A stretch of 64,000 nucleotides of DNA from Heptranchias perlo (lineage: Eukaryota): assembly GCF_035084215.1 (NCBI RefSeq), contig NC_090358.1:14322001-14386000 (forward strand), given 5' to 3'. Position 1 is the first letter of the stretch. The number at the start of each line of letters is the position of its first letter. A program made the translations under genes and the position numbers. Of this stretch, positions 55,609 through 64,000 are shown piece by piece. The notes beneath the pieces were generated by a model. That model saw nothing but the letters and a program-made list of their open reading frames with translations, had not been told where the DNA came from and ran no database searches.

Positions 55609-56224
55609 GCACTCGGGACCCACTAATAAGGTACACGTTGTTTGATAACCATTAGGGTTGAAATACTGGCCAATTGCGGTTGTACCAGTTGTTAATACAA
55701 TATCTTGTGGTTGTAAAGATGAATATAATTACAAAGTGTGGATTCCAGGTTCAGCATGATCTTCCTTACCCCACCATGATGCAATTTAAAATATTAATGG
55801 TTGATTTTACTGGAAAATAGTCAAATGCCTAGAGTTAGAGCAGCAGCCTCAGAAAGGAGGATGTAGGAAAACTGTCATTTACTATGAGCAGTGCGTAAAA
55901 TAATTTACAAACAGAGCAATATAAGCTCGAAATGCTGGTGTTTTTGGTTCAGTCTCAGTCCAGTCTTGTCCTAGAGATGAAATCTATAAGTGATGAGGAG
56001 TCTATCATGATTTCATAAATTCTTCAATACACTGGGTCAGCTTGTGATGGATTTACCAGCATTGATGTCCTGATTTGATTTTTTTCTTTGCTTTTATGAC
56101 ATATTATGTGCTCAATGTTCAAATTGACTTGTACACACAGCTGATCAATGAGAAACTCCTACTTCTGTGTTAGCGAAAATGTCAAATGAAAGCAGAGCAC
56201 TTTCATTTAACTAGCTCCTTATCA

Positions 56225-56515
56225 CATTCTCAGTATACTAATGGATTACTTTTGAAGTACAGTCACTGTTGCTATGCAGGCAAATGTGCACAGAATGGTT
56301 CCACAGACAGCAAATAAATGAATGACTGGATAATCTGTTTCTGGTGATTTTGGTGGAGGGAAGAATGTTGATCAGGGCACCAGGAAAATTCCCTGCTTCT
56401 CTTCAAATAATGTCATGGTATTTTTTTATATCCACCTGGGCGGGCAGATGGGGCCTCTGTTTATAATGCCATCCAAAAGACCACACCTCCGACAATGCAA
56501 CACCTCCTTTGAAGC
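56225..56515 (-). mobile_element. Degraded DeuSINE
   Basis: acttttgaagtacagtcactgtt and ccacacctccgacaatgca match the 48770 copy. Confidence 0.7.
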
Positions 56516-57710
56516 CCTGTTGAGGTTTCAGCTGTAAATTGTGCTTTAAGCTGTATACTGCACTTTAATTATGCATGCGAGGTAATCAAAGGGCTGTAAG
56601 GTTGGAGGTGTACTGCCCTCAACAAGAGTGTATGTGGGCCTCAACCTCCCCAATGGGTTGACGGGTGCCAGAGTTTCTTGTGAGGATGGACAGGTGGTTC
56701 TGAGATGGTCCAGAGATGAACCAGAGGTGGCACTTGGGACTGCTTGACCTAGGCAAAATGAGATGTCCTCTCTTTAACTCCAGATAAACTGGTGGGCTGG
56801 AAGGCACAGTTGTAGCAATAACCACCAGGATCACAGCCCGAGCAATTTCAGGGTCTCTGTTCTTAAGTGCAAAATGCAAATAAATGATTTCAACCAATTA
56901 AAAGATGTTATATTGAGGCTCATTAAAATGCATAATGTTCAGTTCACTTGTGATTTGTCATTTTTTTAATATATGTAAACCTTGGGGATTGTTTGCTGCT
57001 TTGCACAGTTTTTATTCTCGTCTGTGGTCTGCCTGTTATTTTTTATTCTGCGAAGAATACATGCAGATTCTGAGTGCAGACTGCCACCAATAAGCATGAA
57101 GGTCCATCGGGCATCAAGTATTTTTAGTTCATAAGAAATAGGAGCAGGAGAATACGGCCCCTCTAACATGCTCTGCCATTCAATCAGGTCATGGTCGATC
57201 TTCGACCTCAACTCCACTTTCCCGCCCAATCCCCATATCCCTTGATTTCCCCAGAGTCCAAAAATCTATCTATCTATCTCAGCCTTGAATATATTCAATG
57301 ACTCAGCATCCACAGCCCTCTGGGGTAGAGAATTCCAAAGATTCACAACCCTCTGCATGAAGAAATTCCTCCTCATCTCAGTCTTAAATGGCCGACCCCA
57401 TATCCTGTGATTATGCCCCCTAGTTCTAGACTCCCTAACCAGGGGAAACAATCTCTCAGCATTTACCCTGTCAAGCCCCCTCATAATCTTATATGTTTCA
57501 ATGAGATCACCTCTCATTCTTCTACACTCCAGAGAGTATAGGCCCATTCTACTCGATCTCTCCTCATAGGACAAGCCTATCATTCCAGGAATTAGTCTAG
57601 TGAACCTTTGTTGCACCACCTCTAAGGCAAGTATATCCTTCCTCAGATAAGGAGACCAAAACTATACACAGTTCTCCAGGTGTGGTGTCACCAAAGCCAT
57701 GTATAACTGT

Positions 57711-57835
57711 GATGTGGAGATGCCGGTGATGGACTGGCGAAGGAGATAATCACCTGACGAAGGAGATAATCTCCGAAAGCTTGTGATTTTCAAATAAAAC
57801 TGTTGGACTATAACCTGGTGTTGTAAGATTCCTTA
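57711..57835 (-). mobile_element. Miniature PLE insertion (tail plus inverted hammerhead segment)
   Basis: TSD catgtataactgt at 57698-57710 and 57836-57848. 57710-57737 is the reverse complement of tail 61983-62010. 57748-57838 matches 61883-61973 with a few substitutions. Confidence 0.92.
57748..57788 (+). ncRNA. Minimal hammerhead ribozyme motif in the miniature PLE insertion
   Basis: AAUCAC-CUGACGA-A-GGAG-AUAAU-CUCC-GAAA-GCUU-GUGAUU, with a fully Watson-Crick stem I. Confidence 0.88.
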
Positions 57836-58088
57836 CATGTATAACTGTAGTAAGACTTCCTTACTCTTGTACTCTAACCCCCTTGCAATAAAGGCCAACA
57901 TGCCATTTGCCTTCCTAATTGCCTGCTGTACTTACACTTTCTGTGCTTCTTGTGCGAGGACACCCAAGCCTCTCAACACCAACATTTAATAGTTTCTCAC
58001 CATTCCAAAAATATTCTGCTTTTCTATTCTTCCTACCAAAGTAAGGAATCTTACAACACCAGGTTATAGTCCAACAAATTTATTTTAA

Positions 58089-58129
58089 AATCACAAGCTT
58101 TCGGAGATTATCTCCTTCGTCAGATGATT
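58089..58129 (-). ncRNA. Minimal hammerhead ribozyme motif, mirror copy in the left arm
   Basis: Exact reverse complement of 61883-61923. Confidence 0.88.
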
Positions 58130-58365
58130 GAATGAAAAGGTTCTCAAATCGCATATCTTATACGATGTTGGGACAGCATCACACCAATCAAAAGGTGTCG
58201 TTGTTATTCAAACAGGCCAGTCACGGAGAACAGCACGTCCCAGTACACTCGATATACATTGTGTCTTTTACACAGGCAGGCAGAAAGAAACTTAAAATGG
58301 CAGAGAGAGAGAGAGAGAGAATTTTAAAAAACATATAAATTTTTTCCCCCTTTTTGCTGGTGGGG

Positions 58366-59804
58366 TTACGTGTAGCGTGACATGAACCCAAGATCCCGGT
58401 TGAGGCCGTCCTCATGGGTGCGGAACTTGGCTATCAACTTCTGCTCGACGATTTTGCGTTGTCGTGTGTCTCAAAGGCCGCCTTGGAGAACGCTTACCCG
58501 AAGATCGGTGGCTGAATGTCCTTGACTGCTAAAGTGTTCCCCGACTGGGAGGGAACCCTCCTGTTTGGCGATTGTTGCGCGGTGTCCGTTCATCCGTTGT
58601 CGCAGCGTCTGCATGGTCTCGCCAATGTACCATGCTCCGGGGCATCCTTTCCTGCAACGTATGAGGTAAACAACGTTGGCCGAGTCACAGGAGTATGAAC
58701 CATGTACCTGGTGGGTGGTGTCCTCTCGTGTGATGGTGGTATCCGTGTCGATGATCTGGCATGTCTTGCAGAGGTTGCCGTGGCAGGGTTGTGTGGTGTC
58801 GTGGACGCTGTTCTCCTGAAAACTGGGTAACTTGCTGCGAACGATGGTCTGTTTGAGGTTGGGTGGCTGTTTAAAGGCGAGCAGTGGAGGCGTGGGGATG
58901 GCCTTAGCGAGGTGTTCGTCGTCATCGATGACATGTTGAAGGCTGCGGAGAACATGGTGTAGTTTCTCCGCTCCAGGGAAGTACTGGACGACGAAGGGTA
59001 CTCTGTTGGTTGCGTCCCGTGTTTGTCTTCTGAGGAGGTCTATGCGATTCTTCGCTGTGGCCCGTCGGAACTGTCGATCGACAAGTCGAGCGTCATATCC
59101 CGTTCTTACGAGGGCGTCTTTCAGCGTCTGTAGGTGTCCATCGCGTTCCTCCTCGTCTGAGCAGATCCTGTGTATTCGTAGGGCCTGTCCATAGGGGATG
59201 GCCTCTTTGACGTGGTTGGGGTGGAAGCTGGAAAGGTGGAGCATCGTGAGGTTGTCCGTGGGCTTGCGGTAGAGTGAGGTGCTGAGGTGCCCGTCTTTGA
59301 TGGAGATTTGTGTGTCCAAGAAAGAAACCGATTCTGAGGAGTAGTCCATGGTGAGTTTGATGGTGGGATGGAACTTGTTGATGTTATCGTGTAGTCTCTT
59401 CAGTGATTCTTCGCCGTGGGTCCATAGGAAGAAAATGTCGTCGATGTATCTGGTGTATAGTGTTGGTTGGAGGTCCTGTGCAGTGAAGAAGTCGTGCTCG
59501 AACTTGTGCATGAAAATGTTGGCGTATTGGGGTGCGAATTTGGTCCCCATGGCTGTTCCGTGTGTTTGGGTAAAGAACTGGTTATTGAAGGTGAAGACAT
59601 TGTGATCCAGGATGAAGCGGATGAGTTGTAGGATGGCGTCTGGAGATTGGCTGTTGTTGGTGTTGAGTACTGAGGCTGTTGCAGCGATGCCGTCATCGTG
59701 GGGGATACTGGTGTATAGTGCCGAGACGTCCATCGTGGTGAGAAGTGTTCCTGGTTCAACTGGTCCGTGGGTGCTGAGTTTTTGTAGGAAGTCTGTAGTG
59801 TCGC
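58366..59804 (-). pseudogene. Inverted, more truncated copy of the same PLE RT-GIY-YIG ORF
   Basis: Track ORF 58471..59733(-) matches the + copy except HDNIN/HDIIN and LHLSS/LHFSS. The same premature TGA is at 58471-58473. Confidence 0.93.
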
Positions 59805-61646
59805 AACGCCATCAACGCTCTCAAGACCAACCGAAACATCGTCATCAAACCAGCGGACAAAGGAGGAGCCATTGTCATACAGAACAGAACGGACTATTGC
59901 AAAGAAGCATACCGACAACTGGACAACCAGGAACACTACAGACGGTTACCCGCAGATCCGACCAAAGAACACACCCACCAGCTCAACAAACTGATCAAGA
60001 CCTTCGATCCAGACCTTCAAAGCATCCTACGCACTCTCATCCCACGTACTCCCCGCGTGGGTGACTTCTACTGCCTCCCAAAGATACACAAAGCCAACAC
60101 ACCCGGACGTCCTATCGTATCAGGCAATGGAACCCTGTGTGAGAACCTCTCTGGATACGTCGAGGGCATCCTGAAACCCATTGTACAGGGAACCCCCAGC
60201 TTCTGTCGCGACACTACAGACTTCCTACAAAAACTCAGCACCCACGGACCAGTTGAACCAGGAACACTTCTCACCACGATGGACGTCTCGGCACTATACA
60301 CCAGTATCCCCCACGATGACGGCATCGCTGCAACAGCCTCAGTACTCAACACCAACAACAGCCAATCTCCAGACGCCATCCTACAACTCATCCGCTTCAT
60401 CCTGGATCACAATGTCTTCACCTTCAATAACCAGTTCTTTACCCAAACACACGGAACAGCCATGGGGACCAAATTCGCACCCCAATACGCCAACATTTTC
60501 ATGCACAAGTTCGAGCACGACTTCTTCACTGCACAGGACCTCCAACCAACACTATACACCAGATACATCGACGACATTTTCTTCCTATGGACCCACGGCG
60601 AAGAATCACTGAAGAGACTACACGATATCATCAACAAGTTCCATCCCACCATCAAACTCACCATGGACTACTCCTCAGAATCGGTTTCTTTCTTGGACAC
60701 ACAAATCTCCATCAAAGACGGGCACCTCAGCACCTCACTCTACCGCAAGCCCACGGACAACCTCACGATGCTCCACTTTTCCAGCTTCCACCCCAACCAC
60801 GTCAAAGAGGCCATCCCCTATGGACAGGCCCTACGAATACACAGGATCTGCTCAGACGAGGAGGAACGCGATGGACACCTACAGACGCTGAAAGACGCCC
60901 TCGTAAGAACGGGATATGACGCTCGACTTGTCGATCGACAGTTCCGACGGGCCACAGCGAAGAATCGCATAGACCTCCTCAGAAGACAAACACGGGACGC
61001 AACCAACAGAGTACCCTTCGTCGTCCAGTACTTCCCTGGAGCGGAGAAACTACACCATGTTCTCCGCAGCCTTCAACATGTCATCGATGACGACGAACAC
61101 CTCGCTAAGGCCATCCCCACGCCTCCACTGCTCGCCTTTAAACAGCCACCCAACCTCAAACAGACCATCGTTCGCAGCAAGTTACCCAGTTTTCAGGAGA
61201 ACAGCGTCCACGACACCACACAACCCTGCCACGGCAACCTCTGCAAGACATGCCAGATCATCGACACGGATACCACCATCACACGAGAGGACACCACCCA
61301 CCAGGTACATGGTTCATACTCCTGTGACTCGGCCAACGTTGTTTACCTCATACGTTGCAGGAAAGGATGCCCCGGAGCATGGTACATTGGCGAGACCATG
61401 CAGACGCTGCGACAACGGATGAACGGACACCGCGCAACAATCGCCAAACAGGAGGGTTCCCTCCCAGTCGGGGAACACTTTAGCAGTCAAGGACATTCAG
61501 CCACCGATCTTCGGGTAAGCGTTCTCCAAGGCGGCCTTTGAGACACACGACAACGCAAAATCGTCGAGCAGAAGTTGATAGCCAAGTTCCGCACCCATGA
61601 GGATGGCCTCAACCGGGATCTTGGGTTCATGTCACGCTACACGTAA
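59802..61646 (+). pseudogene. 5'-truncated PLE polyprotein: reverse transcriptase, Cys-rich linker and GIY-YIG endonuclease, with one premature TGA at 61539-61541
   Basis: The frame is open from RNAINALKTNRNIVIKPADKGG. Motifs: FYCLPKIHK, GRPIVS, MDVSALYTSIP, GTAMG, RYIDDIF, FLD, CHGNLCKTC, NVVYLIRC..C..YIGET, RMNGHR, VGEHF. After the TGA it continues DTRQRKIVEQKLIAKFRTHEDGLNRDLGFMSRYT*. Confidence 0.93.
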
Positions 61647-61882
61647 CCCCACCAGCAAAAAGGGGGAAAAAATTTATATGTTTTTTAAAATTCTCTCTCT
61701 CTCTCTCTCTGCCATTTTAAGTTTCTTTCTGCCTGCCTGTGTAAAAGACACAATGTATATCGAGTGTACTGGGACGTGCTGTTCTCCGTGACTGGCCTGT
61801 TTGAATAACAACGACACCTTTTGATTGGTGTGATGCTGTCCCAACATCGTATAAGATATGCGATTTGAGAACCTTTTCATTC

Positions 61883-61923
61883 AATCATCTGACGAAGGAG
61901 ATAATCTCCGAAAGCTTGTGATT
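61883..61923 (+). ncRNA. Minimal type I hammerhead ribozyme motif in the PLE terminal repeat
   Basis: AAUCAU-CUGACGA-A-GGAG-AUAAU-CUCC-GAAA-GCUU-GUGAUU. Stem I is AAUCAU/GUGAUU, the core is CUGANGA and GAAA, stem II is GGAG/CUCC, and stem III is loopless and palindromic (AAGCUU). Predicted cleavage after 61917. Confidence 0.88.
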
Positions 61924-61927
61924 TTAA

Positions 61928-61933
61928 AATAAA
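61928..61933 (+). promoter_or_regulatory. AATAAA polyadenylation-type signal of the PLE terminal repeat (also at 57793-57798)
   Basis: The hexamer is kept in both PLE variants although the flanking bases differ. It is followed by a GT-rich tggtgttgt. Usage is not shown. Confidence 0.5.
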
Positions 61934-64000
61934 TTTGTTGGACTATAACCTGGTGTTGTAAGATTCCTTACATTTGTCCACCCCAGTCCATCACCGGCAT
62001 CTCCACATCATCCTACCAAAGTGAATAACCTCACATTTCCCCACATCATACTCCATCTCCCACCTTCTTGCCCACTCACTTAACCTGTCTATATCCCTTT
62101 GCAGACCTTTGTGTCCTCCTCACAGCTTGCTCTTCTCTTGACTATTGAACCTTAACCTGGTTACCATTGCAATTGCCTTGCTTTGGGTGGCTCAGTTTGG
62201 TACCAACAAATAAGCTAGGATTTGACAAACTAATTCAGCAAGTGAAACTTGCTTTGTAGCTACAGCCCTTTACATAGCTTCAGCAGCACATTGAAATTCT
62301 GTCTCTGCACTTGAGCACTCCCACTGGGTAACCAGGATATTGTCTTGCATATTTAATTAACCCCAAACCTAGGCATCCAGGTGCAATAAATTATGCAGGG
62401 GGCCTGCTGCCCACCATTCCTGTTGACATTGTGTCTATCCTTACAAGTGAAGAGATGGTTTGTGAAATGACTCCATGTTAAAATTTCAATATAGTCAGAC
62501 TGGATAGAATTAACAAGGAGAACAGATAACAGACAGGCGTATTTAGCTCCCATCACTATAACAGGAGGATAAGTTGTAATTGTGAATTATTACTTGATTT
62601 GACAGCAATTCCTGCACAATAATAGTTTAATTCAACATGTCAGATTTGTTGATGGCACAAAAATCTTCTTTTGATTTGTACAGTTATATTTAATGTCCTT
62701 TGACAGGAAGCTCACACTGTGCAATTTAAAAGCAAAAATCAAGAGAATTTTCCTTTCATGGATATTCAAAGTAATTTTCAAGATGACTGTTGCTGAATGA
62801 GTAATGCATTGCATTTTTAACAAGTTTCATTTTTACTTGAAAATCAGAAATGGAAGATTGCCCATTTTTCTCCATAATTAATGATCCATTAACAAAATTG
62901 CAGGAACACACAGCTTTGAACAGTGCAATGTTTAAGATTTTATTAGCTGGCTGTTAAATGTGGATAAAATCCATGTTTCACCAAGAGGAATTCCACCCCA
63001 TATGTTCCATTAGGTTAAATCTAATACCTATTTTCTGATCTTTTTCTAAGTTACTTATGGATTGACTTGTATGGGCACTTAGCTGCAATAAATCGAAGTG
63101 TTTTTTTGGTTTCTATTACTAAGTAAGTTAATGTTCTTTTAAACAATTTCTATATATGGTCGTTTGCACATCTACACGCATGTGTTAGACTTTTGTTTAT
63201 TAGATTTTATAAACAAAGTGATTTTTTTTTTACGTCACTGTTGGCTTTTGGTTTACAAGGGGGCCAGATGTACATATCAGCTAATCCTCATTTTAAATAC
63301 TCTAGTATCTCTTTTGAAAAATACCTAGGTTGTAATTTAGTACTGTTCCATAACAAATAAACAAATGTTGTTCTAAATAATCTAAGCTTCTGAAGAGGGA
63401 AAAGAAAATTTCCTAATTCAGTCATCAGTTTTTTTTTCTGGTTGTACTCGAAGCAGTTTGGCTTTGAATTGAAGTTGATTTTTCCCTCCTATAATGGCAG
63501 TGCAAATGTTGCCAAATAGATATCCAGAAAGGTGTGAAATTGGATTTATTCCTCCAGATTGGCTGTTCTTGTGCCAGCTAGGACTTGTATTGGTTCTCAT
63601 AACAATAGTCCTGCCCAACTGTAACGTGGTTTAACTCATTTTTGATCTCATGGGTTTGACTCTGATAGCTGCTAGGCATGTAGATAGACTGAGATAAATT
63701 GTATTGGGTACCATTGGGCAAGTCCCAAATTTCTCATCGTTTAATGCTTTTTTTAATAACCTGCAAGTTATGGTTTAATATGCATTTTCATTTTTACCCA
63801 TGGGGAACAGAGTTCTAACCTAGTACATTATTTTGTTCAGAATTCCACAGGTAGGGGAGAAAAGGAATAACAGTGTATGCTTGCAACATTTTGTGGAGTG
63901 TGGGCTGGTTAGGTATGACTGGTTTGGTTATGATGTTTGGTTGGTTGCCTAATGGACTCCATAGTCTTTCATGAAATCAGCTAGAGAGTTCTCCCTCTTT

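Follow-up and report, generated by a model that had tools for sequence, protein, structure and literature searches.

The window (the whole 64,000-nucleotide stretch of DNA that was analysed) contains a two-armed insertion of what its sequence identifies as a shark Penelope-like element (PLE) with a Neptune-type linker. The reverse transcriptase (RT) in the open reading frame (ORF) remnant was matched by RVT_1 (E=1e-10). GIY-YIG motifs were read directly in the ORF and its homologues carry PF01541; Pfam on the window protein did not call the endonuclease domain. The linker before the endonuclease reads CHGNLCKTC (CX4CxxC), and a CX2-5CxxC linker is a mark of Neptune and Nematis (PMC8557442). 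The preference for Neptune over Nematis rests on the vertebrate host. The closest named relatives of the ORF are shark proteins of 96% and 87% identity. The family has a pseudo-LTR (pLTR), partial tandems, an inverted copy and a tail; a natural tandem shows a 3,039-nt unit, a start codon that begins 93 nt after the predicted hammerhead cut, and a 38-nt tail. The features of the locus are as follows, with signed positions counted from the predicted cut.

57710..57837, no strand: separate 128-nt head-to-head mini-insertion
57748..57788, + strand: sister-subfamily hammerhead in the mini-insertion, its outer stem I letters derived from a junction re-copy
58031..58042, + strand: left copy of the 12-nt target-site duplication, partly shared with the arm end
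58041..59807, - strand: left, short-ended inverted arm, 1.77 kb, with the same premature stop as the right arm
58089..58129, - strand: hammerhead in the inverted arm, identical to 61883-61923
59808..62010, + strand: right, long-ended arm, with a 5'-truncated RT-thumb-Zn linker-GIY-YIG ORF remnant plus pseudo-LTR
to 61646, + strand: ORF remnant of the right arm, premature stop at 61539
61850-61856, + strand: TATA-like box, kept across subfamilies while the spacer diverges
61877-61883, + strand: initiator-like TCATTCA
near 61879, + strand: predicted transcription start, 4 nt before stem I, where arm 5' ends pile up
61883..61923, + strand: minimal type I hammerhead of the pseudo-LTR, from sequence, fold, covariation and genome count
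61883-61888, + strand: stem I, 5' strand
61889-61895, + strand: core CUGACGA
61896, + strand: unpaired A between core and stem II
61897-61909, + strand: stem II
61910-61913, + strand: GAAA, followed by GC and then UU
61913-61916, + strand: loopless palindromic AGCU
after 61917, + strand: predicted cut site
61918-61923, + strand: stem I, 3' strand
61936..62010, + strand: structured priming region, outer stems plus hairpin 61957-61972
near 61971-61972, + strand: short end (+55)
62010, + strand: long end (+93); in unit-length copies the ORF start codon begins at this base
62011..62022, + strand: right copy of the target-site duplication

The mini-insertion at 57710-57837 is composed of an inverted +66..+92 piece, a re-copied stem II fragment and a -33..+55 arm, and is flanked by a 13-nt duplication (57698-57710 and 57836-57848). 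Both window insertions lie inside an older degenerate repeat (57130-58030 and elsewhere), and the window is rich in dispersed repeats that are 75-85% identical. Decoding of the TGA at the premature stop as selenocysteine was rejected, the stop being private to the window insertion among the copies compared.

By sequence and fold, the 41-nt motif at 61883-61923 has the layout of a minimal type I hammerhead with a loopless stem III, located on the sense strand of the PLE pLTR. The core arrangement CUGANGA ... GAAA ... UH is present with H17 = U, so that the intact CUGACGA/GAAA core reported in the first-pass annotation was confirmed, together with two further window copies. In helix II the G10.1-C11.1 pair is present and an unpaired nucleotide sits between positions 9 and 10.1; the annotated 4 bp of stem II are kept across subfamilies, and the window copy itself can form 5 bp with a 3-nt loop. 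Positions 15.2-16.2 are palindromic, GC in the window motif, and there is no loop III. In hammerhead numbering the helix III pairs are A15.1-U16.1 and G15.2-C16.2, which gives the stem AGCU. A14 and U17 are core positions, and full AAGCUU pairing would tie up both A14 and the cleavage-site U17; the helix III palindrome was taken as AGCU for that reason. Stem III is thus loopless and palindromic as first described, with the conserved stem being AGCU and not AAGCUU.

The hammerhead at 57748-57788 has C in place of U beside the core. This U/C change in stem I, which had been read as a pairing-preserving difference between copies, does distinguish the subfamilies (U-G versus C-G). In the AAUCAC at 57748, however, the outer letters are a re-copied stem II piece at the inversion junction and not natural upstream sequence. 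A loose hammerhead descriptor gave five window matches against 0.81 expected, three of the five being the three copies, and the isolated 41-mer folded modestly better than shuffles (z -2.1, 6/200). No hammerhead model was matched by an Rfam scan of 56000-64000 at E up to 10, a result that was not taken as evidence against a loopless hammerhead variant.

On these features the window ribozyme is assigned to the known min-HHR class of metazoan PLEs, as had been proposed together with the inability of stem III to close in a monomer. Shared with that class (PMC4209133) are the type I layout without loop III, the palindromic 15.2-16.2 positions, the extra nucleotide between 9 and 10.1, the G10.1-C11.1 pair, the pLTR position and the predominance of dispersed single motifs. 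Helix II is 4-5 bp in the shark versus 7-8 bp in the Schistosoma min-HHR, and members of the class were also reported from fish Neptune elements (PMC4209133). According to Cervera and De la Peña (2014, PMC4209133), monomers of the class are inactive and weak cutting is confined to dimeric or trimeric constructs, in agreement with the earlier statement that PLE minimal hammerheads cleave as dimers. For the shark motif, cleavage after 61917 would likewise be likely to be weak and to occur as a dimer only. CUU is a slower cleavage triplet. For the window copy, the dimer of lowest energy forms through the stem II palindrome GGAGAU-A-AUCUCC, but loop II varies across subfamilies and this candidate dimer signal was rejected.

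In the 3.25-Gb genome, the pattern CTGANGAAGN{6,16}CGAAAGCTT gave 82,576 matches versus 3 for the reversed pattern, and the abundance of the hammerhead in the genome is beyond chance. Descriptor searches gave ~4,000 motifs in coelacanth and ~9,000 in Xenopus (PMC4209133), figures whose method is not comparable with the single exact pattern used for the shark.

Conservation was assessed in 26 subfamily representatives, which were hand-picked via the core pattern and are related to one another, so that they hold few independent covariation events. The four core-proximal pairs of stem I were kept in 26/26 representatives, with wobble pairs and two compensatory changes, and pairs 5 and 6 in 14/26 and 22/26. 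Among these core-selected sequences the core was invariant while N7 and loop II varied, and AAGCUU was unchanged in all 26. The spacer upstream of the hammerhead has strongly diverged between subfamilies and can serve as a diverged flank; the downstream priming region cannot, its conservation being about equal to that of the core. In the hairpin at 61957-61972, the short priming site, a compensatory change was observed (G-C in 9, A-U in 12 and G-U in 3 of the 26 representatives). A search for other stem III variants in the genome found no active broken-palindrome subfamily among the 100 matches listed of 1,322, and returned sporadic mutants, older families and a second tandem family. The latter also carries a minimal hammerhead, with a CG insert, UC and a perfect stem I of 5 bp, and repeats every 8-20 kb in large arrays, at L121-L128 (G000:C1 about 0.93-1.02 Mb) and at G000:C1 about 198.1-198.3 Mb.

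Among distant elements, a sense-strand motif was found at 16/80 metagenome loci with related RTs. The insert was palindromic in 20/20 motifs from the 80 distant PLE loci and 0 were obtained in five shuffled sets; the descriptor did not require a palindrome, and some of the 20 motifs are repeats of one element. At position 17, 8 of them have A, and U and C account for 6 each. Core and palindrome are retained at 30-50% protein identity despite unrelated stem sequences, and the distant elements are stronger evidence for a conserved ribozyme than the covariation among subfamilies.

The ends of the insertions were examined in 101 arms, namely the first 100 of 5,001 downstream-anchor matches plus one incidental arm, all on one contig; two initial DNA searches, biased to best hits, were left out of the end statistics. 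Arm ends were located near +55 in 54/101 and at +92/93 (62009-62010 in the window) in 47/101, which extends to the whole family the two priming sites first noticed about 55 and 93 nt downstream of the ribozyme. The arms fell into 77 events, 36 with two called ends, 35 consisting of a solo arm (18 long, 17 short) and 6 in which no end was called for the partner. A long end was paired with a short one in 35 of the 36 two-ended events (p=5e-10 against an even split). A duplication of 10-14 nt was present in 34/36, as listed by hand, and the sole short+short event had no target duplication.

A pile-up of arm 5' ends at the hammerhead cut was ruled out, as 0/101 arms start within 3 nt of the predicted site. 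Instead, 20/101 arms start at -45..-26 versus 3 in the next 15 nt upstream, and an initiator-like site lies ~30 nt after the TATA-like box. Among 33 longer arms from the subfamily whose common spacer is longest, drawn from a sample selected for short junctions, 13 stop 16-17 nt before the core (17 predicted) and 2 go beyond. Copies running from the repeat into the ORF were inspected by eye in the first 100 of 852: 4 end at the start window and ~53 retain the TATA region (9 of these belong to one array). Sequence lying upstream of the start is therefore part of long templates, as would be expected of multimers or circles. We infer a template RNA whose 5' end lies just before the hammerhead and which is copied either uncut or after re-ligation. 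Tandem units within insertions were near-identical (0 differences in 3,055 nt; 1 difference plus a 2-nt gap in 2,971 nt), as would fit a circle and a multimeric read-through template alike. Multi-unit insertions with arms of at least 3 kb and near-identical units, often beside simple repeats, were seen at L255 and L428-L429.

Junctions between arms often hold a re-copied core and stem II fragment beside stem I, as if the RT had jumped back on arrival at the RNA 5' end (window 57738-57753; L032, L033, L035, L036, L040, L046, L055 and L246), these loci having been selected by a query that contained that junction. At L263 (G000:C1 about 2,628,700) a mini-palindrome junction is centred exactly on AAGCTT, which suggests that this palindrome can be used as microhomology between two cDNAs. 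Pure fold-back copying was rejected as a general rule, because short arms often run past the upstream limit of their long partners and cannot be the source of the tail.

Whether one RNA or two served as template was assessed by comparing paired arms. The two window arms differ at 3/1,757 sites with no lineage-type difference and carry the private stop in both; the window insertion fits one template equally well, so that the two-template insertion originally read from this locus is supported at the level of the family and not by the locus itself. Genome-wide, ~8,275 mini-pairs have both cores within 30 nt, and N7 differs in 245 of them (~3%). As a control, G-to-C was permitted at two invariant sites, which yielded 36 additional matches (18 per site); N7 is part of a CpG in one allele, and its background may be somewhat higher. 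The first 51 mini-pairs comprised 18 C, 31 G and 2 mixed, a composition at which random pairing would give ~47% mixed pairs versus the ~3% seen. Other subfamilies contributed 5 of the first 100 N7-mixed pairs, by eye, versus 8/18 of the C-type pairs, and mutation therefore accounts for roughly a tenth. A second, loop marker, for which there is no matched control, differs in 122 mini-pairs, and 18 of the first 100 loop-marker-mixed pairs are mixed at N7 as well (p=9e-10; baseline 3%). Among 20 pairs fetched, 18 had one duplication and all 20 paired long with short; among 30 fetched N7-mixed pairs, a duplication of at least 10 nt was scored by script in 21. Three N7-mixed pairs with 11-13 lineage differences had no shared duplication, and these most divergent pairs are probably separate events.

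Longer arms were compared in 42 pairs, 24 of which overlap by at least 200 nt, after arms of <92% identity to the reference had been dropped. L176 and L245 carry 9 and 6 linked non-CpG lineage differences, each within one duplication, and the alleles at these sites also occur in other insertions. L185 has 8 lineage differences and no duplication, and five pairs have one such site. At L252, both forward-tandem repeats carry a -45 variant absent from the inverted long arm, all within one 12-nt duplication, a single case that fits two RNAs. Arms of different lineage in one event would mean two RNA molecules, mostly of the same source. Taken over the family, two RNA templates per insertion are probable for at least part of the events.

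The alternative that a single RNA provides both arms, by two starts with strand displacement or through tandem or circular repeats, with mixed pairs arising by later conversion or mutation, is considered unlikely, although a good deal agrees with it: ~97% of mini-pairs match at N7, the window arms have their private stop in common, strict long+short pairing suits two sites on one RNA, and several long arms stop at +23 to +66, scarcely overlapping the short arm. Against it, discordant pairs are 6-13 times as many as mutation is estimated to produce (18-40 pairs); they cluster in the same insertions (18/100 double) and come mainly from subfamilies in which both alleles act as sources; moreover, the near-identity of tandem units means that one tandem RNA would rarely give 6-9 linked differences. 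Post-insertion gene conversion may also have produced mixed arms. A far less probable reading makes the hammerhead a mere passenger, inactive or parasitic, that persists only because it belongs to the promoter and protein-binding repeat. The absence of arms starting at the cut (0/101) agrees with this, as do the anole element, where mutating the hammerhead had no effect on in vitro insertion and the cut was not seen as the end of any RNA read (PMC11167929), and the suggestion of Craig et al. that hammerheads parasitise PLEs. It is opposed by stems that covary whereas loop II and N7 vary, by the core and palindrome that outlast all stem similarity in the distant elements, and by the anole motif, which cleaves once protein is added (PMC11167929).

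The first-pass annotation had further proposed that dimerisation through the ribozyme palindrome holds the two element RNAs together near the priming sites. In the version considered here the uncut hammerhead would act as a tether, AGCU/AAGCUU pairing with swapped stem I delivering two RNAs to two nicks in the manner of a retroviral genome dimer. It draws on the invariance of AAGCUU in 26/26 representatives, the existence of single events of mixed lineage, templates that are uncut at the hammerhead and the position of the motif 55-93 nt from both priming sites. Nearest-neighbour duplex energies, which ignore core tertiary contacts, are -2.5 kcal/mol for AGCU and -4.3 kcal/mol for AAGCUU; the hammerhead-type AGCU dimer was less stable than two monomers in all 26 copies (by 3.5-5 kcal/mol in 25/26, and worse in the last). 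U17, which the 6-mer needs, is present in 6/20 distant motifs, and AAGCUU is thereby lineage-specific. Naiads make the same inverted, tailed insertions without a canonical hammerhead (PMC8557442), and catalytic hammerhead mutants left insertion in vitro unaffected (PMC11167929), although the palindrome is still present in them. Dimeric catalysis already accounts for the palindrome, and a two-fold symmetric RNA duplex gives no long+short prediction. A retrovirus-like dimer initiation site is a conserved 6-nt palindrome in a hairpin loop, able to drive dimerisation; here, the palindrome lies in a junction, the 6-mer is limited as above by U17, and the dimer is not favoured. The tether is accordingly judged improbable. 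The same low standing is given to the wider reading, in which PLEs would integrate as pseudo-diploid particles whose RNAs, paired via the uncut-hammerhead palindrome, are primed at +55/+93 and allow subfamilies to recombine.

Dimerisation of the element protein is also predicted. The N-terminal 280 aa of natural copy L016 were modelled as a homodimer via an antiparallel helix, with helix 57-77 at the interface (score 0.53, versus 0.00 for the best of three controls; contact agreement of at least 17%, pLDDT of at least 55). The threshold applied was reached by 17/29 eukaryotic homodimers (7/16 animal) and 0/30 monomers, and a pass may reflect memory of the predictor. It is more likely that the two RNAs are held by the element protein than by the hammerhead. 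A symmetric protein dimer does not by itself explain the strict long+short pairing, and neither it nor an RNA duplex accounts for this asymmetry.

The explanation favoured here, held with somewhat better than even confidence as a whole, is that the minimal hammerhead processes transcripts as a weak dimer ribozyme and that a protein dimer primes two uncut RNAs at +55/+93. Transcription would start ~4 nt before stem I. The hammerhead dimer would likely cleave weakly after 61917, processing element transcripts, and head-to-head insertions would likely form when the predicted protein dimer primes a pair of uncut element RNAs, at +55 on one and at +93 on the other. Copying from two internal sites to the RNA 5' end would yield the numerous hammerhead stubs of 90-130 nt. 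In the weakest step of the scheme, cleavage at both repeats may give unit-length or circular RNA, and longer-than-unit copying may restore the promoter.

Several parts of this scheme have counterparts in other PLEs. In the Anolis Poseidon element PAc (Frangieh et al. 2024, PMC11167929), as in the shark, two internal reverse-transcription starts bound the tail, both target strands are primed, the RNA template is uncut and an N-terminal protein dimer is predicted. PAc belongs to another clade; its ORF starts inside the hammerhead and priming occurs ~111-118 nt into the ORF, unlike the shark element, in which the long end coincides with the start codon, 93 nt past the cut. The main text on PAc covers neither the pairing of long with short ends in one insertion nor the use of two templates. 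Head-to-head arms, a short target duplication and a 30-40 nt tail at one end only are also found in Adineta Pen2a (PMC3846280) and Naiad/Chlamys (PMC8557442), and Pen2a has, like the shark element, a putative TATA and Inr in the pLTR (PMC3846280). Drosophila Penelope has a TATA-less internal promoter (PMC2377424). Both PMC3846280 and PMC8557442 attribute the inverted layout to self-priming or endonuclease resolution; the shark data, with short arms exceeding long arms and arms of mixed lineage, argue against pure fold-back. Non-LTR retrozymes (bioRxiv 10.64898/2026.07.22.740005) have a type I hammerhead of pLTR origin as well. Identity as a retrozyme was rejected for the window locus: where retrozymes form non-coding tandem arrays, it consists of two insertion arms and retains part of an RT-endonuclease ORF. 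A retrozyme-like array of the shark PLE family was observed at G000:C2:21272854-21276296, with at least nine tandem 404-bp units containing the pseudo-LTR and ORF start.

No report of two-template PLE integration was found in the literature searched, subscription papers and supplements lying outside the search. The ribozyme itself is ordinary for its class, and what the analysis adds is the family-level evidence on the insertion mechanism. Beyond the description of the class in PMC4209133, it assigns the shark stubs an origin, between a likely start site and a pair of sites for internal priming.

The formation of inverted, tailed PLE insertions is stated as open in PMC8557442 and related literature. 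Tens of thousands of young shark events with ~12-nt target duplications reduce the question to three testable rules: one long and one short start per event, templates that are uncut at the hammerhead, and, in some events, arms from two source lineages. Should the use of two RNAs in each integration be borne out, PLEs would have a recombination route like that of retroviral co-packaging, and the many solo minimal hammerheads of animal genomes would be explained as 5'-end stubs. Should the pseudo-diploid reading hold, the ribozyme would double as a genome-dimer signal, and mixed pairs would let subfamilies recombine.
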